The notes: a model not told the origin generated them from the letters alone. Shown: positions 4,756-22,960, counted from the stretch's first letter. The stretch: DNA of 64,000 nucleotides from Escherichia phage QL01 (NC_028847.1), one strand, 5' to 3'. Numbers and translations: made by a program.

Positions 4756-6252
4756 ATGCAAATTCAAGTACATTTTGATAATTTTAGTCATGTCCGTATT
4801 GAATGCGATGAATCTACATTCTACGAACTCAGAGACTATTTTAGCTTTGAAGCTGATGGATATAAATTCAACCCTAAATTTCGTTATGGTCAATGGGACG
4901 GACGTATTCGCCTTCTGGATTACAACCGTAAACTTCCTTATGGATTGGTCCCTCAAATTAAAAAGTTCGCTGAACAATTTGAATACTCTCTGTGGATTGA
5001 CCCACGTATTCTTGAACAGGAAGATATTTCTCGTGAAGATTTTGATTCATGGGTGGCTTCTCAAGAAATTTATTCAGGGTCTACCAAGATTGAGCCTCAT
5101 TGGTATCAGAATGAAGCCGTATACAACGGCCTGACAAAACGTCGCGCAATTCTGAATTTACCTACATCTGCAGGTAAATCATTAATCCAGGCACTCCTGA
5201 GTCGATATTACGTTGAGAACTATGAAGGTAAAATCCTCATCTTAGTTCCTACTACTGCACTTGTCGACCAGATGATTAACGACTTCATCGATTATCGTCT
5301 GTTCCCTAAAGCCGCAATGCTTGGTATTCGTTCAGGTACTGCTCGTGATTCCGATGCAATGATTTATGTTTCAACTTATCAAACCGCTATCAAGCAACCT
5401 AAAGAATGGTTTGCTCAGTTCGGTATGTTTATGAACGACGAATGCCATTTGGCTACAGGTAAATCTATTTCTACTATCATCGAAGGCCTAACCAACTGTA
5501 TGTTTAAATTCGGTTTGTCTGGTTCTTTAAAAGATGGTAAAGCTAATTTAATGCAATATATGGGTTTGTTTGGTGATGTGTTTAAGCCAGTATCCACCTC
5601 CCAGTTAATGGAAGAAGGACAGGTTACTGACCTTAAAATCAACAGTATTTTCCTTCGATACCCAGACGAATTCACGGTTAAAATGAAAGGTAAAGATTAC
5701 CAATCAGAAATCAAGGTCATTACTAAGGCTACTCGTCGTAATAAATGGGTTGCTAATTTAGCTGTTAAACTCGCTAAGAAAGAAGAGAACGTATTCCTGA
5801 TGTTTAAAAACATCGAACACGGTAAAACTCTTTTTGAAATGGTTAAAGAGCAACATAAAGAAGTTTATTACGTATCAGGTGAAGTTAATACCGAAACGCG
5901 TAATGCTCTGAAAGTAATGGCGGAAAATGGTAAGGGTATTATTGTTGTGGCAAGTTATGGTGTGTTCTCTACTGGTATTTCCGTTAAGAACCTTCACCAC
6001 GTTGTATTTGCCCATCCAGTAAAATCTAAAATCATTGTACTCCAGACAATTGGTCGTGTACTCCGTAAACATGCCTCTAAATCAACAGCACAGGTGTGGG
6101 ATATCATCGACGACATGGGTGTTAAGCCTAAATCAGCTACGGCTAAAAAGAAATATGTTCATTTGAACTATGCCCTCAAACACGCTTTAGAACGTATTCA
6201 ACGTTATGCTGATGAGAAATTTAATTACGTAATGAAACAGGTGGATTTATGA
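4756..6252 (+). CDS. uvsW: UvsW DNA/RNA helicase
   Basis: 498 aa; near-identity to recalled T4 UvsW across the length (HWYQ, LNLPTSAGKS, MNDECH, VLQTIGRVLRKH motifs). Confidence 0.95.
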   Translation: MQIQVHFDNFSHVRIECDESTFYELRDYFSFEADGYKFNPKFRYGQWDGRIRLLDYNRKLPYGLVPQIKKFAEQFEYSLWIDPRILEQEDISREDFDSWVASQEIYSGSTKIEPHWYQNEAVYNGLTKRRAILNLPTSAGKSLIQALLSRYYVENYEGKILILVPTTALVDQMINDFIDYRLFPKAAMLGIRSGTARDSDAMIYVSTYQTAIKQPKEWFAQFGMFMNDECHLATGKSISTIIEGLTNCMFKFGLSGSLKDGKANLMQYMGLFGDVFKPVSTSQLMEEGQVTDLKINSIFLRYPDEFTVKMKGKDYQSEIKVITKATRRNKWVANLAVKLAKKEENVFLMFKNIEHGKTLFEMVKEQHKEVYYVSGEVNTETRNALKVMAENGKGIIVVASYGVFSTGISVKNLHHVVFAHPVKSKIIVLQTIGRVLRKHASKSTAQVWDIIDDMGVKPKSATAKKKYVHLNYALKHALERIQRYADEKFNYVMKQVDL

Positions 6253-7712: not shown

Positions 7713-8335
7713 TACATCACCTTAAAGAACTCTTTAAGTCCCTCAATAACGTGGACGGTGTGTTCACCACATTCACAAGAAATAGGTATAGCCAAAATAG
7801 GCTTAGGGGCGACTAGTGCATCATAAACTTCTTTTATATCTTTTTCTGTTATCACAGAATAAAGGTCATCAAGTTCCGCATCGCTTAAATCGGAAAGAAA
7901 AAGCTTTTCACCTGCAGAAGTTAAAATATAATCGATACACCCGGCGACCATCATAGCTCTATTTTTATCTTCAAAGAGTTTAGGATATCTGAAAACAATT
8001 TTAAAGTTGCCAAAGTCTTTAATAACATCCGGCTCTTTACCCAATGTTGCTCGAGTTAGTGTCATAGGGACAACCTGTGAGCGACCACAACTACAACTCC
8101 ACTCACGTTCTATATTCACTTCAGCTAATGAATGGGCCCACAGGTTTATCACCAGGAGCTCAGATTCTTGCTTGTTTAAATCACGGGCATCTGTGCAATT
8201 CGAAATGAGTTCATTGATAAAGGACTCTATTCTGCCTTCTAATTTAGCTTGGAGCAAGTCCTTATATTCTCTGAGGGTAAATGCTCTGCATTTTATGGTT
8301 TTGTTTTTAATTTTTACGTCAAAAGTATAATTCAT
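7712..8335 (-). CDS. 26: Baseplate hub protein gp26
   Basis: 207 aa (T4 gp26 is 208 aa); position between 25 and 51; strong SD. Confidence 0.8.
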   Translation of the reverse strand: MNYTFDVKIKNKTIKCRAFTLREYKDLLQAKLEGRIESFINELISNCTDARDLNKQESELLVINLWAHSLAEVNIEREWSCSCGRSQVVPMTLTRATLGKEPDVIKDFGNFKIVFRYPKLFEDKNRAMMVAGCIDYILTSAGEKLFLSDLSDAELDDLYSVITEKDIKEVYDALVAPKPILAIPISCECGEHTVHVIEGLKEFFKVM

Positions 8336-8353
8336 TGTCTTCTCCTTTAAGCT

Positions 8354-8365
8354 TATTTATAAATA
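8354..8365. promoter_or_regulatory. Overlapping divergent late promoters (TATAAATA on both strands) for gene 51 (+) and genes 26-25 (-)
   Basis: TTTATAAATA contains TATAAATA on plus strand and, offset by 4 nt, on minus strand. Confidence 0.5.
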
Positions 8366-8385
8366 CATCAATAAGAGGACACCCT

Positions 8386-9138
8386 ATGGCTAATATAGTA
8401 CGTTGTGAAATGCCTGATGGAGTCCACCGATTTAAACCTTTTACAGTAGCTGATTATCGTGATTTTATTTTGATTCGAAATGACATGAATAATAAATCGC
8501 CTGAAGAGCAAAAACAAATTTTAGATGAGTTACTGGAAGAATACTTCGGTGAATATCCTATGTCATGGCGCCCATATATGTTCATTGAACTTTATACGTC
8601 ATCACTCGGCAAGACCAAAATTCCTATCCGATACACTTGTAGTAAGTGTGAAAAGGATAGACAAGTTTTATTCAATTTGAAACAGACCAAGTTAGATAAT
8701 CCCACAATTGAAGTGGCCGGCTTGAAGCTAACATTCAAATTTCCGGAAATAGAATATCAAGACAAATCCGAATTGATTCTGAACACCCTCCAAACCGTGG
8801 AAGATGAAAACGGGAAATATAATTGGACTGACCTTTCTGAAGAAGACCAATTAGCCGTAATAGATGCTATAGACTTATCCACTTTAGAGGATATAGTCAA
8901 ACAAACTAGCCCTATTAATTTTGAACTAAAATATGGATGCTGTAATCGTAGAACAATTACGTATACCGATATTTTAGAGGTGTTTAAGCTTATAGTCAAC
9001 CCGGATGAGATATTTTTATTTTACCAAATAAACCATTTATTGGTAAAGAACAATTATTCATTAGAAAGCATTATGCAGATGATTCCAATCGAACGCGGTA
9101 TTGCTTTGTCTTTGGTTGAAAAGGACCTTAAGAAATGA
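8386..9138 (+). CDS. 51: Baseplate hub assembly protein gp51
   Basis: Track ORF begins at a TTG; first ATG at 8386 has SD AAGAGGA; ~250 aa matches T4 gp51 size. Confidence 0.8.
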
Positions 9139-10304
9139 GTTCAAAAACTATGCAACGTGAAGGCTTTCCTAATATTAGTATACGCCTTTACGAAGATTAT
9201 GACGCCTGGTTAGAGCATCGTTTTGTTGAACTAGGCGCGACATTTACTACTCTAACAATGCGAGATGGGCTTTACGGTAGTAATGAAGGGTTGCTTCAGT
9301 TTTATGATGCAAAGAACCTTCATACTAAAATGGATGGTGAGCAGATTATTCAAATTTCTGTTAAGAATGCTAACTCTGAACGTACCCAATCAAGAATTTA
9401 TGGAAGTAAACACTTTGCTGTAGGAGTGGATTCGAAGGGCGACAATATCATAACAATACAACTCGCCCCAATCCACTTTTTAGAGAATCTTAAATTTAGT
9501 CGTATGTTCTTCCCGAGTGTTCAAGAAACATTAACTGAAATGATTGGTGTTATTTATCAAGACCGTCCGCTTCTTGCTCCTCCTTTGAACGGGATAAACG
9601 TTTACGTTCCTAATGTTCCTTGGTGTGATTCAATGGACCGTTATATGGAATTTGTACGAGAAGTAGGTATGGCCGTTGAATCTGATAAATTTGTATTTGT
9701 CTGGGAAGATATAGATGGTATTTCTATCATGGACTACGAATTTATGGTTAACCAAGAGCCTATTAATTTTGTAGTGGGTGAACCGCGATTAATAGGTCAA
9801 TACGTTCAAGATATGGATACACCTATCGCATTTGATTTTGAATGGTTAACTAAAGCCAACCAACATTCCAGAAAACCATATGAAAACGCTACTGTATACG
9901 CCCACTCTTTCTTAGACAAAAACGCCACACGAATTACTTTTGGTGACGGGCAAAACAGTATATTGGTTTCTCGCTCCGGTGGATATTCTGATTATACCTA
10001 CCGAAACGGTTTTGAAGAAGCCGATAGATTAGTTACTATGGCCCAATACGATGGATACGCTCATTGTAAGGTATATGGTAACTTTGAACTAACTCCAGGC
10101 GATAAGATTAATTTCTATGACCCTAAAAACCAATTCCAGTACGATTTTTATGTAGACGAAGTTATTCATGAAGTGAGTAACAATACATCAATTACAAACC
10201 TTTATATGTTTACTAATGGTAAGCCTATTAAGATTGAAGAACCGCCGAAGGTTAAAAATGAACTTAAAACTGATACTCCCGATCAAGAAAATAACGCTGG
10301 GTGA
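9135..10304 (+). CDS. 27: Baseplate hub protein gp27
   Basis: 389 aa (T4 gp27 is 391 aa); ATGA overlap with gene 51. Confidence 0.9.
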
Positions 10305-14556: not shown

Positions 14557-14584
14557 AAAAAAGGAGAGCATATGCTCTCCTTTA
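14557..14584. terminator. Bidirectional terminator between gene 54 and the convergent alt block
   Basis: AAAAAA-GGAGAGCATATGCTCTCC-TTT perfect 18-nt palindrome. Confidence 0.65.
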
Positions 14585-14589
14585 GGGGT

Positions 14590-14880
14590 TTATTTACGGA
14601 ACGAAATGAAACCTGCTGCAGTCATTAATGGCTGCTTTTTAACAAAGACCGTGATAGAAATAGGAGCTTCAGATTCGAGTTGTCCTGTCACTACACCGTT
14701 AAAAATGTTTTCGGTTTGTTCTGGATAAGAAAAATTCTCAACAGGTCGGATATCAAACTGTTTGTCTTCACCGAAAACTCGACGTAATTCATTACCTACG
14801 GCACTGTCAAACTCTTCGGAAGCAGGGATAACGTTTTCAACTACCAGTTCTTGACCATTAAAACGGAATGCAGATTTCAT
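14590..14880 (-). CDS. Hypothetical protein downstream of the alt array
   Basis: 96-aa ORF with SD GAGGAG and its own upstream early-promoter-like element. Confidence 0.6.
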   Translation of the reverse strand: MKSAFRFNGQELVVENVIPASEEFDSAVGNELRRVFGEDKQFDIRPVENFSYPEQTENIFNGVVTGQLESEAPISITVFVKKQPLMTAAGFISFRK

Positions 14881-14908: not shown

Positions 14909-14938
14909 ATAGTACCACATCCTTGTGGTGTTGTAAAC
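14909..14938 (-). promoter_or_regulatory. Early-type promoter (GTTTAC, ~18-nt spacer, TACTAT) for the 96-aa gene
   Basis: Matches T4 early promoter pattern; -35 overlaps stop of alt paralogue A. Confidence 0.45.
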
Positions 14939-17061
14939 TACATTTTGAATTTATTTGATAAAGAAGAGATATCCAAAGACGCGGCAAGGATTTCCATAGC
15001 TTCGTTGCTTTCAGAAACGGATTCATTAACCAAGAATTGACTAAATCCATCCATCAGGCGAACTTCACCAGTTTCCATCAAATGGTCACCATCGTAAACA
15101 GATTCGCTGAGCTCTGAAGGAGGCGTTACGGTAGCTTCCATAAGGTATTTGTGAGATACTCTATCATTCATGGCAAAAGCCGCTACTTTATCAACCTTCA
15201 ACAATAATCCACGCGGAAGGATAATTTCTGCTTCTTCGGCATATTCTGTAAGGTCACCAGGAGCGATAACTTTAACTGCTTCAGCACCTCGAATAACCAT
15301 ACCAATTTCAGCAATTCTATCTGCAGGACCTTCAGGTGCAATTGGATTACCAAACTCGTCTTCTTCCCATTCTACCTCTTCGTCATCGACTTCACCCACA
15401 TCAGATGAACTACCACTAGCCAATTTAAACAACTCATCAGCGGAGGACAAAGAACCTTCACCACCAACAAAAACGGCTTGGTTGTCGAGGGCCATATAAT
15501 TTTTACCGAATTCACCAAAGATGTTAGGCTTTAATGAGGCTGACACAAAGTTCTTAAAGTAAAATGTTTTGTTATCGATATTATGGCGCAGAATTTTGTA
15601 TGGCAAATCCTGACCACGATACAAAATAGTACCCTTAGGAAGTTTAATACCCTTAGTAAATGCTGAGTCTAAATCCTTAATCAATTTAATAGCCGTTGTA
15701 TTGTTTTCGGATTCAGGTTTACCTAAAAGGAATAAGTTCATAGGAGCATATTCAGCCGCGCAATATTCAATAATAGCATTGCTTTCGTCTTTGGTTAGGT
15801 CCTTAGGTTTAATGAGCTCGCCTGAATAAGCATATGCATCACTAATAGAATCGTTAACCAGTTTATAAACGGCTTCCATAGCGAAAGCAATTCTAGATGC
15901 TTTCTCTGAAGGGGAACCCTTAAAACGGGTACTCAGGTTATTAACAATTTTCTTAATAATATCCAGACTATTGGTTGTATTGATTTGCGAAAGGCCACTT
16001 AAAAGTCTATCGACTTCTGTATTAAAAAATGCCATATTATTAGAGTAAATTTCAAACCCTTGTTTATCTCTATTAGCATAATTTAGTTTAAATTTACTAT
16101 CAGTCATTAAAGCGTGTGTGAGAGCAATAGTGTATCTAAAGTTGGCAAGGTCCTCGCTCTTAGATTTAAACTGAGAAGCCTGACGCATTTTAGTAATGGC
16201 ACCTTTTTTAAAGTTCTGACTAATCTGTTCAATACCTTCGTTCTCAGGGCCTTCAGCCGTGTGAACCGGTACAGAAGCTTCAAACTCGTTATAAACCTGC
16301 AATTCTTTAGGGGACAAAGTTTCAGGCTCAGCAGTAGAATACTGCGCGGCCGCAGCCATACGACGCGAAATCTTAGTACGAGAGATAACGGCCTTATCAG
16401 TACGTTTCTCTTCAACTTGTGCAATAGATGCCGCTACGGCTTCTACTTTACTTACGGCCTGGCCTGTTTTCTTAGAAACATACACTTCGCCAACTTTAGA
16501 CTCAACTTTAGTATAAAGATCGGCATTAATTTCAGGCATACCCTTGATATCTTCAATATTAGCACCGCGACGTACTAAAAGAACGTAGGTATGTTTTCCG
16601 CTGAATTGGAACATGTCGTCAACAACTTTAAACTTACCACCGGTACGAGCCATAGCCAAACGAGCTAATACGCGCTGAACGGTAGGACCTTTACCTTTCA
16701 TTTTCTTAGTAGGGAAACGGAATAAAACCGCGTCCATTTTAAGTTTGATTATTTGTTCATATATGGTATCGAAAATGGTGTTCAGTGTACCGAGTGGATC
16801 GGTACCCAAACCACCCTTGAGTTCTGCCGGAGCGCCTTTAGCAGATAAACTCATTAAGATAACATGGACGTACTTATCGCCATTTTTAACCATCTTAATA
16901 GCGTCGCCTTCGGACGCATAAGATACCATACGTGCTACTAAATTGTCATTACCAGGAGCATGTACCGCAAAAATCTGCGGTACGCCTGAGCCAGGTTTAA
17001 GATTTGTTACCGGATAGTTTTTAGCGGAATCGCTATCAAAAACTTCGTTTAAATTTTCCAT
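14938..17061 (-). CDS. alt: Alt-like ADP-ribosyltransferase paralogue A (707 aa)
   Basis: Conserved ~230-aa N-terminal domain with LNE near N-terminus; C-terminal R-S-E motifs (LYRGQ, FVSASL, EAEIILPRG); acidic insertion in catalytic domain. Confidence 0.85.
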   Translation of the reverse strand: MENLNEVFDSDSAKNYPVTNLKPGSGVPQIFAVHAPGNDNLVARMVSYASEGDAIKMVKNGDKYVHVILMSLSAKGAPAELKGGLGTDPLGTLNTIFDTIYEQIIKLKMDAVLFRFPTKKMKGKGPTVQRVLARLAMARTGGKFKVVDDMFQFSGKHTYVLLVRRGANIEDIKGMPEINADLYTKVESKVGEVYVSKKTGQAVSKVEAVAASIAQVEEKRTDKAVISRTKISRRMAAAAQYSTAEPETLSPKELQVYNEFEASVPVHTAEGPENEGIEQISQNFKKGAITKMRQASQFKSKSEDLANFRYTIALTHALMTDSKFKLNYANRDKQGFEIYSNNMAFFNTEVDRLLSGLSQINTTNSLDIIKKIVNNLSTRFKGSPSEKASRIAFAMEAVYKLVNDSISDAYAYSGELIKPKDLTKDESNAIIEYCAAEYAPMNLFLLGKPESENNTTAIKLIKDLDSAFTKGIKLPKGTILYRGQDLPYKILRHNIDNKTFYFKNFVSASLKPNIFGEFGKNYMALDNQAVFVGGEGSLSSADELFKLASGSSSDVGEVDDEEVEWEEDEFGNPIAPEGPADRIAEIGMVIRGAEAVKVIAPGDLTEYAEEAEIILPRGLLLKVDKVAAFAMNDRVSHKYLMEATVTPPSELSESVYDGDHLMETGEVRLMDGFSQFLVNESVSESNEAMEILAASLDISSLSNKFKM

Positions 17062-17064
17062 TAT

Positions 17065-19110
17065 TTACCCTTGGATGAATTTTTCTGGCGTTTCGTCAAA
17101 ATTAATACATGAAGCTAAAATAGGCATTATATCCACCTTGGTCGATTTGACGAATGAATCAAAAGACACAGGGTTGTCGGTCTCTGTTTCTACGCCTTGG
17201 TAAACAACCAATTCGCCGGTTTCCATCAATGCATCACCATCATAGATAACCGCATTTTCTGCTAGTTGGTCTGTGGTCTGGATATCAGCTTCCAATAATT
17301 TGGTGTTGTAGTTTCCTTTATATGAGGCATCTGTAATTTTAGTAATCTTAACAGTAGTTCCACGTGGAAGAATAACCTCTTGTTCTGTTGGAGAACCTGA
17401 CAATTTACCTGGCACAATTACGTTAATAGAGTCTGCACCGGAAATTTTCCAACCGATGTTCATCATTGTATTTTCGGAACTCGTCAGCATACTTGGAAGA
17501 ACAATTTCATTATCGCCTTGGAAAGATGTCCCAGCGCGATAGTCCTGATGAACTGCGGCCATTGCGACGTTTGATACCCAGCCGCCAAAGATAATCGGCT
17601 TAAGGGACGTTGATACATAGTTCCTGAAATAAAACAATTTTGAGTGTTTGATTTTATCAAAAGTGTTAACATTTAAATATTGACCACGCCAAAGTGTAAT
17701 ATCAGGTGGCAATTTATGGCCAATTTCAAATGCTGCATCCATATCATTAATTACTTCAATTACACGATAACTATCAATAAATTCTGCATCCTCTTCATAA
17801 TAATTACCCAACAAATAATTATTAACATCGGTATAATATTGGCCACAATAAGAAGAAATAGCCTCACGCTGCTCATACTCAAATCGATTATCGCTATAAC
17901 TGGCTGTAAAATGCATAACACTTTCTGACGCTTCATTAGCAAAGTCGGTAACAGCAGCACTTATACGTTGAGCATACTCTTGTTCCCAAAGCTCTGCTGC
18001 ATATTCTGCCGCATCCATATTAGGAGGAGCCTCATTCATTTTTCTTTCAATAAATGCAGCTTTGCGAAGGTTAAGAACCTCTGCACATGATTCGGCAAAA
18101 ATCTGCATCTGCTTCATACTGCCGACAGGAGCACGTTTAAGTTCACGATGCATACGGTTAAAAATTGGGTCAGAGTCTTCGACTCGAATTTCTTCTTTCC
18201 AAACACCGTTTGCTCGCATAGCCATATCTGCCGCGCGCATACGCTCCATAGTATTCGTTTCAGAAGGTTGAATAAAAATTTCTAGTTCTTCATAATCATC
18301 GATAAGTTCCGCTGTTGCTGGGGCACTAAATTTTGATGCCTCTGCATCAATCTCATTCCAACCTTCCGGAACTTCATCTCGAGGAGAATACTGGGCTGCG
18401 GCTACAGCACGCCTAGAAATCTTAGTAGTAGTAATAACGGCCTTATCCGTACGTTTTTCTTCGACTGCCGCTATACTAGCAGATAGTGCTTCTATTTTGG
18501 TTACCGATTGGCCTGTTTTCTTGGATACATAAACCTCACCAACTTTAGACTCAACCTTAGTGTAAAGGTCTGCATCAATTTCAGGCATACCTTTTATGTC
18601 CTCAATATTAGCTTGTTTACGGACCAGTAAAACGTATGTATGTTTGCCTGTAAATTGATACATATCATCGACAACTTTAAACTTGCCGCCAGTACGAGCC
18701 ATCGCCAAACGTGCCAATACACGTTGAACAGTAGGACCCTTACCTTTCATTTTCTTGGTAGGGAACCGGAAAAGAACTGCATCCATTTTAAGTTTGTTTA
18801 CTTGTTCGTATACAGTATCAAAAATGGTATTCAGCGTACCAAGTGGGTCAGAACCTAACCCACCTTTCAACTCGGCTGGGCTACCCTTAGCAGACAAACT
18901 CATCAAAATAACATGAACATATTTGTCGCCCGGCTTAACCATTTTAATAGCGTCTCCTTGAGACGCATAAGATACCATACGAGCAACCAGATTATCATTA
19001 CCTGGTGCTTGGATAGAGAAAATCTGTGGAATACCGGAACCCGGTTTAAGATTTGTTACTGGATAGTTTTTAGCGGAATCACTATCAAAAACCTCATTTA
19101 AATTTTCCAT
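17065..19110 (-). CDS. alt: Alt-like ADP-ribosyltransferase paralogue B (681 aa)
   Basis: N-terminal ~230 aa nearly identical to A; divergent middle; ART motifs LWRGQ, YVSTSL, EQEVILPRG. Confidence 0.85.
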   Translation of the reverse strand: MENLNEVFDSDSAKNYPVTNLKPGSGIPQIFSIQAPGNDNLVARMVSYASQGDAIKMVKPGDKYVHVILMSLSAKGSPAELKGGLGSDPLGTLNTIFDTVYEQVNKLKMDAVLFRFPTKKMKGKGPTVQRVLARLAMARTGGKFKVVDDMYQFTGKHTYVLLVRKQANIEDIKGMPEIDADLYTKVESKVGEVYVSKKTGQSVTKIEALSASIAAVEEKRTDKAVITTTKISRRAVAAAQYSPRDEVPEGWNEIDAEASKFSAPATAELIDDYEELEIFIQPSETNTMERMRAADMAMRANGVWKEEIRVEDSDPIFNRMHRELKRAPVGSMKQMQIFAESCAEVLNLRKAAFIERKMNEAPPNMDAAEYAAELWEQEYAQRISAAVTDFANEASESVMHFTASYSDNRFEYEQREAISSYCGQYYTDVNNYLLGNYYEEDAEFIDSYRVIEVINDMDAAFEIGHKLPPDITLWRGQYLNVNTFDKIKHSKLFYFRNYVSTSLKPIIFGGWVSNVAMAAVHQDYRAGTSFQGDNEIVLPSMLTSSENTMMNIGWKISGADSINVIVPGKLSGSPTEQEVILPRGTTVKITKITDASYKGNYNTKLLEADIQTTDQLAENAVIYDGDALMETGELVVYQGVETETDNPVSFDSFVKSTKVDIMPILASCINFDETPEKFIQG

Positions 19111-19113
19111 TAT

Positions 19114-21198
19114 TTACCCTTGGATGAATTTTTCTGGGATGTCATAGAGGTCTATGCATGAAGCCAAAAGAGGCAGTACATCAAACCGTGTAGATTTAAC
19201 AAATGAATCAAAAGATAAGGGGCTTTCGGAAGTATCGAAGTCATCTTGATATACGACCAACTCGCCGGTTTCCATTAGTACATCACCATCATATACCACA
19301 GATTCTTGAAGCTCATCTGTTGTCATAACTTCAGCTTGAATGAGTTTTGTATTACTAGATGTTGTTCCATCATTATTAGAAGCATCTGTTATTTTATTAA
19401 CTTTGACCATTAATCCACGCGGTAGAATAACTTCGGCTTCAGTTGCTATTCCGAGATTTCCTGGATATACGACATTAACTTTATGGGCCCCATCAATAGC
19501 CCATCCTATTTGAACTTTAACATAATCAGGATTTTCTTTATATGCTCTTATTTCATTAGGATTAATAGTTATTCCTTCTTCATTTTTATCGACTGTCAAT
19601 TCATTGCGAACTTCAGGTTCTAAAAGACCGATACCAGCGTGCGTAACACCAAAACGTCCGAAAATTATAGGGGTCAATGAAGTGGATACAAAATTTCTAA
19701 AATAAAACACTTTATTTTTAACTAGTGCTTCGTATATAGGAGCAGTCATACTCTGGGCACGATAAACTGTGATGCCCTCTGGTATACGGTCGCCATTTTC
19801 AAAAGCAGAATCCAAATTATTAACTGCAGATTCGATATCTTTTTCGCTCATAACCTCATAGTTCTGAGGATTATAACGTCCTAAAAGAAGATTATTTATG
19901 TCTGTATATCCTGAACCACAATATTCTCTGATACCACGCTTTTGTGATGGAGTATATTTAGAACCCTCACGAGCAATAGTAATATCGACCATAATACCGC
20001 CACCTACACCAGCAAAACTATACACGCGTTTTTTAATGAACTTGGTCTTGGCCGCTTTCCACTTGGCCTCTGTCAATTCGTTCCAAAGGTCATCAGGTTG
20101 GCCTTTACGGGTTCTGTTATGAATAGCCAGCCACTCGCCTTTGTATTCTTCGAAAATGGTATTAATAGTAGAGGCATATTTTTCTAGGGCTTTAACAGAT
20201 GTCAAAGGTTCGTTTTTGATGGCCGTAAGGATTTTCTCTTTAATTTTCTCTTGGATTTCGCCAATACCGTGAAGTGGGAACAATTTGTAATCGTAATGCA
20301 ATTCTTCAGCAGTGCCTTCAGCCACTATATTAGCAACCTTATTTTTAGCCGCAGGAGAATTGTTATTAGTAACCATTTCCTGAGCCTCAGGGATTAATGG
20401 AACTGTTGCCGGTTTATTAAAATCTACTGCAGTAGCTTCATATTTCTTAAACAGCTCACTTTCATTACGATAAGATTCTAACGATTGACTTGCTGCAATG
20501 GCACGTCGAGAAATCTTAGTCTTGGTTATAACCATTTTATCAGTGCGACGTTCTTCAACCTTAGCAATACTACCGGCAATAGCAGTTTCTTTAGTAACCT
20601 GCATGCCTTCTTTTTTGGAAATATAAACTTCGCCGACATCAGAATCTACCTTAGTATACAATTCAGCATTAATTCCAGGCATACCTTTGATATCTTCTAT
20701 ATCAGCTTGTTTACGAACTACCAGGATGTAAGTATGTTTACCGGTAAATTGGTACATAGCCGGAACTACTTTAAAACGTCCACCTGTTTTCTGTGCTACC
20801 AAACGTTGGATAATCCGTTGAACGATAGGGCCTTGACCTTTCATTTTCTTAGTAGGGAAACGGAACATCACGGCATCCATACGAAGCTTTTTAACTTGGT
20901 CATAAACCACATCAAAAATAGTATTAATCGCATCTACGGGAGTAGGGCCTAGGCCACCTTTAAGTTCGGCAGGCGAACCTTTAGCTGAAAGGCTCATAAG
21001 GATAACGTGGGCATATTTATCACCCATCTTAACCTGTTTAATAGCATCACCTTCAGAAGCGTAGGATACCATACGCGCCACTAATTGGGATTCTGCGTCA
21101 CCAATCTTCCAAATCTGGGGTACTTTAAGTTTTGGGTTCAAGTTTACTGTAGGCAGTGTGCCTTCGGACTCAAACACTTCATTTAATTGTTCGGTCAT
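19114..21198 (-). CDS. alt: Alt-like ADP-ribosyltransferase paralogue C (694 aa)
   Basis: Same architecture; ART motifs VYRAQ, FVSTSL, EAEVILPRG; C-terminal tail shared with B (SFDSFVKST...PEKFIQG). Confidence 0.85.
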   Translation of the reverse strand: MTEQLNEVFESEGTLPTVNLNPKLKVPQIWKIGDAESQLVARMVSYASEGDAIKQVKMGDKYAHVILMSLSAKGSPAELKGGLGPTPVDAINTIFDVVYDQVKKLRMDAVMFRFPTKKMKGQGPIVQRIIQRLVAQKTGGRFKVVPAMYQFTGKHTYILVVRKQADIEDIKGMPGINAELYTKVDSDVGEVYISKKEGMQVTKETAIAGSIAKVEERRTDKMVITKTKISRRAIAASQSLESYRNESELFKKYEATAVDFNKPATVPLIPEAQEMVTNNNSPAAKNKVANIVAEGTAEELHYDYKLFPLHGIGEIQEKIKEKILTAIKNEPLTSVKALEKYASTINTIFEEYKGEWLAIHNRTRKGQPDDLWNELTEAKWKAAKTKFIKKRVYSFAGVGGGIMVDITIAREGSKYTPSQKRGIREYCGSGYTDINNLLLGRYNPQNYEVMSEKDIESAVNNLDSAFENGDRIPEGITVYRAQSMTAPIYEALVKNKVFYFRNFVSTSLTPIIFGRFGVTHAGIGLLEPEVRNELTVDKNEEGITINPNEIRAYKENPDYVKVQIGWAIDGAHKVNVVYPGNLGIATEAEVILPRGLMVKVNKITDASNNDGTTSSNTKLIQAEVMTTDELQESVVYDGDVLMETGELVVYQDDFDTSESPLSFDSFVKSTRFDVLPLLASCIDLYDIPEKFIQG

Positions 21199-21230
21199 AA
21201 TAATTCCTCTTTAATAACCTTATTTATGCC

Positions 21231-21252
21231 AGAAAAGGCCCGAAGGCCTTTA
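21231..21252 (-). terminator. Rho-independent terminator upstream of the alt array
   Basis: AAAGGCC-CGAA-GGCCTTT; on minus strand a CUUCGG-type hairpin followed by U-run. Confidence 0.55.
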
Positions 21253-21435
21253 TTAAAGTACTAACAGCGTACGGTACACTTCAAATTTAGGACCCTTTTC
21301 ATAGCGGTCGAAATTATCTTTAAAATCAGCGAACGCGATTTCATTTTCAAATTCAAGGACAATTTGGGACACTGCAGTGGAGACATCCCCACCTTCTTTA
21401 TATCCAATAACCACGGTTTCTAAATAAGCTTTCAT
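21253..21435 (-). CDS. Hypothetical small protein; start uncertain (alternative ATG at 21471)
   Basis: Track ORF starts at TTG; ATG at 21435 sits 1 nt after ligase stop. Confidence 0.35.
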   Translation of the reverse strand: MKAYLETVVIGYKEGGDVSTAVSQIVLEFENEIAFADFKDNFDRYEKGPKFEVYRTLLVL

Positions 21436-21436
21436 A

Positions 21437-22960
21437 TTATAGACCAGTTTGAGACCAATCACCGAATACATCTTCAAATGTATCAGCTTCTGTTTTATCG
21501 AAACGCCAACCTTTAATAATTGGAAGGAAAATACCTACAGTATCGGTACGTCCTTTAGAATGAACCCAACCATTACATTCACAGTCGGCAATACGGCCAA
21601 TCAATTTACCTTCACGAGCTTGTTTCATAAGAAGTTCACGGTCTAAATCAGGCCGGTCTTCCAATGGAATCAATACCTTTTTACCTGATTTATCTTTCTT
21701 ATGGGTGGTATCTTTAAAGCCTGAACCACAGTCACTTGTAATTCGACGACAACGTGATACTAATTCAACACCACCAAGTTTGTTAGGGTCCTTCGAGTGT
21801 TCATAATAACCTACTACTTCTAAAGCAATATCGATTACTTCTTTGAACTTGATAAGATTCTTAGAACGGCGGTTTTCCCAGTAGGAGTCCATGTTCTTAA
21901 GGATAATACCTTCCAGACCTTGGTCGACATATTTCTTATAAACGACTTTAGCTTCTTCAAGATTATTAACCCACTGGTTTTCGATAGCTTCAACACGCGT
22001 TGTGCCATGCAATACGACATTATGAGCCACCATAAGTTCTAAGGCTGTAAAGCGTACATCATACTTATCACCTTTAATTTTGCCTTCAGAATACACGACA
22101 TCCAGTGGGACATAATCCCATGCCTGTAATACCATACCAGCGGCTTCAGATGGGGTGATAGTTCCTTGAAGAGCCTTATTAGCCAATCCATTTGACGTAG
22201 AACGATCGGCGACAGTTTGGAATTCTTTGGCTTTACTTAATTCAGGAAGTTCCTCGTCAAACATACTAAACAAATCATTAGATGCTTTAGGTTCAACTTT
22301 AGGAGTATGGTAAACTAATTCGCCATCAATCATAACGCCATTAGGATGACGTTGACGAGCTTCTTCGGTCATCGCCATTAATTCAGCAGCTAAAAGATGA
22401 AGCCCTTGGTATTCATTACCACCACGAGTAAGGAATGTCACACCATCGTTACGAACTTCGGCAAAACAACGAGCACCATCAGCTTTTAATTGAGCAAACG
22501 CTGGCCATTTAATATTTTTCTTAATCAAAGCTTCATCATAAGAACTCGCCAACATCTGCTGTTGTTCAGGGATTAAACCTTTCCAAACCTTGTTAGCAAT
22601 AGAAATCGATGCACCACATTCAAGGTCGCGCATCATTACACGACGTAATACCTCGGCATCCGGGGCCTTAGCATCAGCAATGATTTGAGCCAGTTCTTCA
22701 ATAGCCGCATTACCCGTAATCTTACGTGTGGCTAATGTGAATTCAGCGAAATCAAGAAGGTCCTCAAGAGTAATCATACCAAAGGATTGAGATGTAAATC
22801 CAGGTTCTGGCCACTTTTTAATACCGTAGTTCAGACGACGGGTATAAGCCATACGATAAACACGTTTCAGAAGCTCATTGTCCTTTTCACGAGCAATAAT
22901 GGCTTCTTTAGCTTTAGTAGAATCAATAGCAGCAATTTCGTTTAAAATATCTAAAATCAT
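21437..22960 (-). CDS. 30: ATP-dependent DNA ligase gp30
   Basis: MILDILNEIAAIDSTKAKEAI... matches recalled T4 ligase N-terminus; KADGAR adenylation motif; start at internal ATG with SD GAGGTGATT. Confidence 0.9.
   Translation of the reverse strand: MILDILNEIAAIDSTKAKEAIIAREKDNELLKRVYRMAYTRRLNYGIKKWPEPGFTSQSFGMITLEDLLDFAEFTLATRKITGNAAIEELAQIIADAKAPDAEVLRRVMMRDLECGASISIANKVWKGLIPEQQQMLASSYDEALIKKNIKWPAFAQLKADGARCFAEVRNDGVTFLTRGGNEYQGLHLLAAELMAMTEEARQRHPNGVMIDGELVYHTPKVEPKASNDLFSMFDEELPELSKAKEFQTVADRSTSNGLANKALQGTITPSEAAGMVLQAWDYVPLDVVYSEGKIKGDKYDVRFTALELMVAHNVVLHGTTRVEAIENQWVNNLEEAKVVYKKYVDQGLEGIILKNMDSYWENRRSKNLIKFKEVIDIALEVVGYYEHSKDPNKLGGVELVSRCRRITSDCGSGFKDTTHKKDKSGKKVLIPLEDRPDLDRELLMKQAREGKLIGRIADCECNGWVHSKGRTDTVGIFLPIIKGWRFDKTEADTFEDVFGDWSQTGL

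Follow-up and report, generated by a model that had tools for sequence, protein, structure and literature searches.

Three alt genes in tandem at one locus

The alt locus of Escherichia phage QL01 (NC_028847.1), a Dhakavirus of the JS98-like type whose nearest record is Escherichia phage LHE83 (99.3% identity), was analysed within a window of 64,000 nucleotides (nt), by which we mean the whole stretch of DNA under study, with positions counted from its first letter. Three genes related to alt of phage T4, which encodes the ADP-ribosyltransferase (ART) Alt, lie in tandem on the minus strand: alt1 (19114-21198; 694 amino acids, aa), which is the promoter-proximal copy, alt2 (17065-19110; 681 aa) in the middle, and alt3 (14938-17061; 707 aa). 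Each is an intact open reading frame (ORF), and at both junctions the neighbouring ORFs are separated by 3 nt. All three proteins cover phrog_802 ('Alt-like RNA polymerase ADP-ribosyltransferase') in full, from position 1 to position 674, with E-values between 1e-249 and 1e-262 (1.8e-262 for alt1 and 4.9e-255 for alt2), and all three score above the gathering cut-off of 23.4 bits for Pfam PF03496 (E 3.6e-36 for alt1, 6.9e-21 and 2.7e-17 for the others). The gene structure and the family membership are thus observed directly, and an initial annotation of this DNA, which had described three full-length Alt-like ORFs 3 nt apart, gave their limits exactly. Judged by family and motifs, the three are paralogues within the T4 Alt family and arginine-type (R-S-ExE) mono-ADP-ribosyltransferases.

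Tandem repeats with conserved segments are prone to misassembly, and a collapsed or expanded repeat could in principle mimic such an array. We reject this explanation, to which we assign next to no probability, on the grounds that the same three-gene layout recurs at 94-99% identity in the independently sequenced genomes LHE83, C6, fDHCT2, MX01, AnYang and KIT01, and that the copies are too different to collapse together.

Every copy begins with a conserved N-domain (alt1 20485-21177, alt2 18397-19092 and alt3 16348-17043, minus strand). The initial annotation had proposed a domain of about 230 residues, and we find about 238 N-terminal residues to be conserved, the aa identity being 89% for alt2 against alt3 and 67-70% for alt1 against either of them. 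This identity follows phage lineage, reaching 95-99% inside Dhakavirus and 42-47% to Tequatrovirus. The domain is of the PF26846 Tevenvirinae_ADPRT type, a membership assigned by proxy, since the Pfam scan did not report PF26846 for the proteins of the window and the name comes from a metagenomic homologue, 64% identical to the N-domain, that is annotated with it. A protein homologue search with the N-domain returned only three proteins, one of them from a split alt gene on the T4-like metagenomic contig ERZ28573362 scaffold_138 (8001-10087), where overlapping ORFs of 371 aa (PF26846) and 340 aa (PF03496) mark a frameshift pseudogene or else are due to a sequencing error.

The N-domain is followed by a central cassette made up of a helical middle region and the ART core (alt1 19303-20484, alt2 17257-18396 and alt3 15103-16347, minus strand), and it is here that the copies part. 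Between them the middle regions are 10-19% identical and the ART domains 33-41%. Profile comparison with hhalign identifies the middle regions of alt1 and alt2 as diverged homologues (probability 95%, E 3e-8) and finds no detectable relation of the alt3 middle region to either type (probability at most 1.3%); the earlier view that these regions are unrelated between copies is therefore upheld for alt3 and does not apply to the pair alt1 and alt2.

Within the ART core, alignment with T4 Alt places the motif residues at R480, S505-x-S507 and E587-x-E589 in alt1, at R475, S500/S502 and E576/E578 in alt2, and at R482, S507/S509 and E610/E612 in alt3. R, S-x-S and E-x-E are intact in each copy, in agreement with the catalytic triad reported initially, and in each orthologue examined. 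In R-S-E ARTs, arginine specificity is predicted by E-x-E, in contrast to Q-x-E, and in this clade the segment from S-x-S to E-x-E includes substrate-recognition loops. That segment, of 73-100 residues, and the middle region hold the biggest differences between the copies: it comprises 100 aa with 23 aspartate and glutamate residues in alt3, 79 aa with 10 in alt1, and 73 aa with 5 in alt2. The acidic insertion that had been noticed before, DVGEVDDEEVEWEEDEF, is indeed present and belongs to alt3 (15352-15402, minus strand; residues 554-570), between S-x-S and E-x-E. T4 Alt is inactive when its catalytic glutamate is replaced in the E577A mutant (PMC11404850); E577 would correspond to E589 of alt1, E578 of alt2 and E612 of alt3, provided that the T4 numbering counts from the upstream methionine of an MM start.

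Both ends of the three proteins carry motifs that resemble sites of the prohead protease gp21, and these too are read directly from the translations. T4 Alt is cleaved by gp21 at ITE-6 and LTE-619, as established by mass spectrometry, with removal of 63 C-terminal residues (PMC5694885; reviewed in PMC9026906), and the T4 record X15811 notes '6 amino acids cleaved off' at the N-terminus. Our alignment puts the T4 ITE at residues 4-6 and LTE at 617-619, matching the published positions, and the N-terminal LNE of all three copies aligns with T4 MELITE. The resemblance of L-N-E to a gp21 site, which the initial annotation had pointed out, hence coincides with a documented T4 site, although its placing at residues 4-6 holds for alt2 and alt3 and shifts to 5-7 in alt1. 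The predicted N-terminal propeptides are MTEQLNE in alt1 (21178-21198), cut after LNE-7, and MENLNE in alt2 (19093-19110) and alt3 (17044-17061), cut after LNE-6. Beyond the N-terminal site noted before, L-x-E is present at both T4 site positions in 3/3 copies, and the predicted C-terminal propeptides measure 62 aa in alt1 (19117-19302, after LQE-632), 63 aa in alt2 (17068-17256, after LAE-618) and 54 aa in alt3 (14941-15102, after LSE-653), all on the minus strand. By analogy with T4, all three copies may be cleaved at both ends in this phage.

Mosaic copies and recombination in the array

Comparison with relatives demonstrates that the copies are mosaics. Against JS98 altA, alt1 is 97% identical in the N-domain and 96% in the C-tail at the aa level (92-97% nt), whereas the middle region is 34% and the ART domain 64% identical, with breakpoints near residues 250 and 624 and residues ~251-623 replaced. 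The central segment is instead 80-100% identical in aa and 83-93% in nt to the upstream Alt of Tequatrovirus T4_ev240, which is T2-type; in this comparison the ART domain reaches 93% aa, the N-domain 47% and the C-tail 30-50%. The ART-coding part of alt1 is also 85-90% identical in nt to T2, RB32, RB68 and hundreds of other records. By these identities, alt1 belongs to class I, has a central cassette of the T2 type and is the positional orthologue of JS98 altA.

The middle copy, alt2, is without counterpart in JS98, JS10 and IME08. Its closest cassette is that of the sole Alt of Gaprivervirus TH40 (middle region 83%, ART 76%, as opposed to 39% in the N-domain), and a sliding-window identity profile shows alt2 to be chimeric: its N-domain is altB-type, and both its cassette, nearest to the TH40 Alt, and its C-propeptide are class I. 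The alt2 module is found at 95% identity or above in 10 phage records and at 60-80% in 33. Unlike the other two, alt3 can be followed along its full length in JS98 altB (92-100% aa), and its similarity to the downstream Alt of T4_ev240 is 47% in the middle region and 58% in the ART domain; on this evidence it is the orthologue of JS98 altB and a class II Alt, akin to the T2-type downstream Alt.

Because the identities of alt1 and alt2 differ sharply between ends and cassette, we conclude from these comparisons that the N-domain and C-propeptide track phage lineage and that the central cassette moves between genera. The breakpoints fall just past the N-domain and just ahead of the predicted C-terminal cleavage site. 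Between orthologues, aa identity exceeds nt identity (for instance, N-domain windows of alt3 and JS98 altB agree at 100% in aa and at 91% in nt), a pattern that points to purifying selection on alt orthologues. We also considered that the Alt N-domain might elsewhere carry payloads other than ARTs, and rejected it because the match counts nearly coincide: the N-domain probe matched 1819 places in 1200 phage records and the ART cassette 1831 places in the phage collection.

The two junctions share a 41-nt exact repeat, CCAGAAAAATTCATCCAAGGGTAAATAATGGAAAATTTAAA, with copy 1 at 19097-19137 (alt1/alt2) and copy 2 at 17048-17088 (alt2/alt3) on the minus strand, which runs from the last seven codons of alt1 or alt2 through the stop codon and ATA into the first 14 nt of the gene that follows. 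A 28-mer that had initially been seen twice does occur exactly twice, with 0 occurrences expected by chance, though as part of this longer repeat. The repeat, and the fact that alt2 and alt3 are roughly 94% identical in their first ~66 nt, are what would favour recent tandem duplication in situ followed by rapid divergence. The junction, however, is found with 0-2 differences also in JS98 altA/altB, WG01 A/B, C6 and KIT01, and since it is equally conserved in two-copy phages we regard it as a maintained junction and not as a fresh scar. Furthermore, N-domain DNA is 53-87% identical overall (70-87% between alt2 and alt3, 53-80% between alt1 and the others), and the same codon is used for only about half of the conserved residues, i.e. 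synonymous divergence is high. Both alt1 and alt3 have class-specific counterparts in Tequatrovirus, the alt2 cassette is nearest to a Gaprivervirus Alt, and convergence of cassettes across genera is implausible at 85-95% nt identity. A recent duplication in situ is contradicted by the N-domain divergence and the cross-genus kinship of the cassettes; we have rejected it and consider it highly improbable. Of what the initial annotation had proposed, the near-identity of the 5' ends applies to alt2 and alt3 only and extends over about their first 66 nt; a role of recombination in shaping the array is upheld, and a recent date for the duplication is not.

Within the 41-nt repeat, AAGGG stands 6-7 nt ahead of the ATG; it may serve the downstream gene as ribosome-binding site (RBS) and, possibly, constrain the repeat. 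The 5' end of alt3 is alt2-like in QL01, a feature that C6 and KIT01 do not have.

A recombination product is preserved in WG01, whose altB matches alt2 at 70/70 of the first informative sites (to nt 354) and then alt3 at 68/72 (from nt 372). The crossover interval, which joins an alt2-type 5' part to an alt3-type 3' part, corresponds to 18739-18757 in the alt2 N-domain and to 16690-16708 in its alt3 partner (minus strand). By this site pattern WG01 altB is a single-crossover hybrid of alt2 and alt3, most simply explained by deletion of one 2049-bp unit, and the crossover implies that recombination in the N-domain alters the number of alt copies. JS98 altB is an older and patchy mosaic. The composition of alt2 is as would be expected if misaligned arrays had undergone an unequal crossover that joined a B gene to an A gene, an event that would duplicate the A/B junction too. 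Read together, these patterns indicate that recombination in the alt array is ongoing.

Expression signals, neighbouring genes and occurrence in relatives

Upstream of alt1, on the minus strand, we find a hairpin (AAAGGCCTTCGGGCCTTT, 21234-21251), a late-promoter-like element (CATAAATA, 21221-21228) and a good Shine-Dalgarno sequence (AAAGAGGAA, 21204-21212). This hairpin recurs in the T4 record X15811, where a late promoter and an RBS are annotated after it, and the putative promoter of QL01 occupies the position of the annotated T4 late promoter, TATAAATA. There is no space for promoters ahead of alt2 or alt3, and a scan for sigma-70 promoters was uninformative, with 19 sites against 19.9 expected by chance. 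A terminator scan detected a strong hairpin-plus-T-run terminator after alt.-3 (14583-14560, minus strand), where the alt transcription unit probably ends. This hairpin (14560-14583) has 10 bp with T-runs on both sides, lies between the convergent ends of gene 54 (14555) and alt.-3 (14590), and is probably a bidirectional terminator. The three genes likely form one late operon with translational coupling.

On the coding strand, gene 30, for DNA ligase, and a homologue of alt.1 precede the array and an alt.-3 homologue follows it, beyond which genes 54 and 48 run convergently to it; according to PHROG matches and the annotation of relatives, the order 30 - alt.1 - alt - alt.-3 - 54 is that of T4, T2 and JS98. 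The alt.-3 homologue (14590-14880, minus strand; 96 aa) lies directly downstream of alt3, matches phrog_1739 (E 1.4e-42) and corresponds to the gene annotated 'alt.-3' in JS98. In T4, mutants with a C-terminal extension of Alt.-3 evade the CmdTAC defence by blocking CmdA degradation (PMC11618068). The alt.1 homologue (21253-21477, minus strand) is listed with a TTG start and 74 aa; because its PHROG match only begins at residue 15, the true start is probably an internal ATG that yields ~60 aa, as in the annotation of relatives. Neither tRNA genes nor Rfam families (at the gathering threshold) were found in the whole 64-kb window.

A query with the 7-kb locus returned 28 records at 80% coverage or above, and at least 12 Dhakavirus genomes have three annotated alt genes, among them C6, fDHCT2 (alt_1, alt_2, alt_3), MX01, AnYang, UGJNEcP3/4, KIT01, WG01 and PSD9. 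Two alt genes, altA and altB, are found in JS98, JS10 and IME08, and two are likewise found in T2, T6 and about 400 other Tequatrovirus records, the two intact Alt-like coding sequences of T2 lying 3 nt apart. The class II (alt3/AltB-type) middle region occurs in 444 phage records, including T2, T6, RB32 (labelled 'alt.-2'), RB18 and HY01. In the T4T annotation, alt.-1 and alt.-2 (4830-5215 of the T4T stretch examined) are described as what is left, after deletion and frameshift, of a second alt copy. From this annotation and the T2-type pairs we conclude that two tandem alt genes are the ground state of T-even phages and that the single copy of T4 is derived. Only alt2 exceeds the two-copy state, and alt2 itself is annotated in about ten genomes.

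The initial annotation had set three copies against the one of T4. This contrast is not sustained, T4 being the exception, given the two intact copies of T2 and the AltB-type module in 444 records, nor is the triple array novel, as it is already annotated in C6, fDHCT2, MX01, AnYang, KIT01 and others. The annotation had also named two findings that would speak against it. One, a triple arrangement common in close relatives together with no evidence of divergent targets, is borne out in its first half; the other, disrupted catalytic residues, is absent from this array, where the motifs are intact. The three-alt array is a known, annotated and normal recombination-shuffled feature of T-even phages. 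Within the collection of papers searched, none dealt with multi-copy alt arrays or with virion proteomics of Dhakavirus Alt paralogues.

A separate observation concerns WG01, in which the third Alt (631 aa; 8129-10024 of the WG01 stretch) lies upstream of the altA-type gene. It has R, S-x-S and E-x-E, a middle region unrelated to the others, and an end (...ANLFK) without the conserved YDGDxLMETGE / C-propeptide tail; it may be loaded or processed differently.

Proposed function and known systems

Each T4 head contains about 40 copies of the core protein Alt, which is ejected into the host, where it modifies Arg265 of the RNA polymerase alpha subunit and other host proteins (PMC9026906; PMC2988021). 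Against this background, we consider it probable that the locus is a recombining array of injected Alt ARTs in which constant loading ends are combined with exchangeable, target-setting cassettes. The genes would be transcribed as a single late unit from the T4-like late promoter upstream of alt1 to the terminator after alt.-3, with alt2 and alt3 translated by coupling across the conserved 3-nt junctions. The products would be built into the prohead core, trimmed by gp21, packaged with the DNA and injected, to modify host proteins on arginine before any phage gene is expressed. The constant ends, i.e. the N-propeptide of 6-7 aa, the N-domain of ~230 aa and the C-propeptide of 54-63 aa, would handle loading into the phage's own head core, and the central cassette, which differs between copies and has been exchanged between genera, would set the host proteins that are modified. 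The array itself would grow, shrink and reshuffle by homologous recombination in the N-domain and in the C-propeptide and junction sequences.

The role of the cassette is where an alternative based on dosage has to be weighed, in which each of the three performs the task of T4 Alt, mainly on Arg265 of RNA polymerase alpha, and the array simply delivers more enzyme. The catalytic motifs are identical and the packaging-related ends are the same in all three copies, and the present data do not separate their targets. Yet the cassettes are only 10-19% (middle region) and 33-41% (ART) identical, the middle region of alt3 having no detectable homology to the others, and each cassette type is separately conserved across genera, which would be unexpected for redundant copies. 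Moreover, T4 Alt, but not Bas37 Alt, restores escape from the Mokosh type I defence (bioRxiv 10.1101/2025.11.20.689424). Since Bas37 Alt cannot replace T4 Alt, Alt alleles can differ in function and are not interchangeable in this evasion, though this has no direct bearing on the three copies of QL01. We therefore hold pure redundancy to be unlikely, and different target spectra to be plausible because the copies differ most in the middle region and in the segment from S-x-S to E-x-E.

A further alternative is that one copy or more serves mainly as a structural protein of the head core, with an enzymatic activity that is dispensable or lost. T4 Alt is a component of the prohead core (PMC11404850; PMC9026906), and the N-domain and C-propeptide are the very parts that track lineage. 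On the other hand, R, S-x-S and E-x-E have been kept in every copy and orthologue examined, and T4 Alt is dispensable for head assembly (PMC9026906; PMC5694885), so that we regard this alternative as quite improbable, less probable still than redundancy.

Several points nevertheless weigh against an array of injected ARTs with distinct targets. The late-promoter-like CATAAATA differs by one mismatch from the T4 late-promoter consensus TATAAATA, of which no exact copy is found in the locus and which occurs window-wide at chance level. The [LI]-x-E motif is short and occurs 5-14 times per protein, and the positional conservation of L-x-E is for that reason suggestive and no proof of cleavage. 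The direction of the WG01 event, deletion from three copies as opposed to another recombination route, was chosen by parsimony. Virion presence, cleavage and enzymatic activity of the three proteins are extended to QL01 by homology, and differing targets are proposed from the divergence of the copies. Finally, the roles of the N-domain, middle region and C-propeptide were assigned from conservation patterns, because the structure prediction for alt1 from an alignment of the three paralogues (mean predicted local distance difference test, pLDDT, 39.7; predicted template modelling score, pTM, 0.29) was too poor for a fold search.

Pursuing the injected-array reading further, we offer a tentative and broader proposal, namely that the alt array could be a polymorphic injected-effector locus whose constant ends fit whichever cassette they flank to the head core of the phage in question, and whose cassettes circulate between Tevenvirinae genera, each neutralizing a different host protein or defence immediately on injection. 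If this is true, a phage with three cassettes would be able to overcome a broader range of hosts or defences. A link between T4 Alt and MazF has been made, and to our knowledge the class II (AltB/alt3) and alt2 types have never been studied, as T4 lacks both. The array therefore constitutes a natural experiment, with common loading ends and differing catalytic cassettes, two classes of which are absent from T4 and uncharacterized. As Alt is implicated in defence evasion and its alleles are not interchangeable, alt arrays appear a sensible place to seek new host targets of injected ADP-ribosyltransferases, and they may also be used to probe the roles of the N-domain and C-terminal propeptide in head loading. 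As a discovery, the array carries small weight, given that tandem alt genes are present in public genomes and that the T4 annotation notes the lost second copy.

The closest studied system is T4 Alt, with which the QL01 genes share position, the architecture of N-domain, helical middle region, R-S-ExE ART and C-tail, L/I-x-E at both gp21 sites, and the upstream hairpin with a late-promoter-like element. In contrast to the one intact copy of T4, there are three here; their N-domains are 42-47% identical to that of T4, none of the cassettes is the T4 allele (middle region 14-33% and ART 38-64% identical to T4 Alt), and the alt3 class is kept in T4 only as the alt.-1/alt.-2 remnant. The tandem pairs of JS98 (altA/altB), T2, T6 and RB32 have a similar layout with junctions of 0-3 nt: alt3 corresponds to JS98 altB and alt1 to altA by position, and T2 has the same pairing of an upstream class I with a downstream class II gene. 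QL01 differs from the JS98 and T2 pairs by the extra alt2 in the middle, and its alt1 cassette is T2-type and not that of JS98 altA. The same locus, with 94-99% nt identity over 7 kb and identical gene order, is found in LHE83, C6, fDHCT2, MX01, AnYang and KIT01, of which KIT01 has a JS98-type cassette in position 1, whereas WG01 and PSD9 are without alt2 and carry the different 631-aa copy upstream.

Beyond alt itself, the internal proteins of T-even phages combine a capsid-targeting sequence that is removed by protease with variable injected payloads at a polymorphic locus (PMC3012670; PMC9026906). The array resembles IPI/II/III, and the logic of polymorphic toxins, in joining a conserved targeting element to variable injected payloads, which is an analogy only and implies no family membership. 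Unlike these internal proteins, Alt keeps a constant domain of ~230 aa in the mature protein and has a C-terminal propeptide, and the Alt payloads seen are all ART variants. The enzymatic components of the VIP2, iota and CDT binary toxins are built of two ART folds, with an N-terminal adaptor domain for binding the translocation component; with them, the copies share the PF03496 ART domain and the R-S-ExE clade, and a sequence search of the PDB returned BEC-a and CdtA as the closest entries, with weak matches (E about 1e-3) over residues 413-482 only. As this similarity is local and limited to the catalytic domain, we would not file the Alt copies under binary-toxin components, from which they also differ in having no binding/translocation partner and in their probable delivery, as for T4 Alt, by the phage head.

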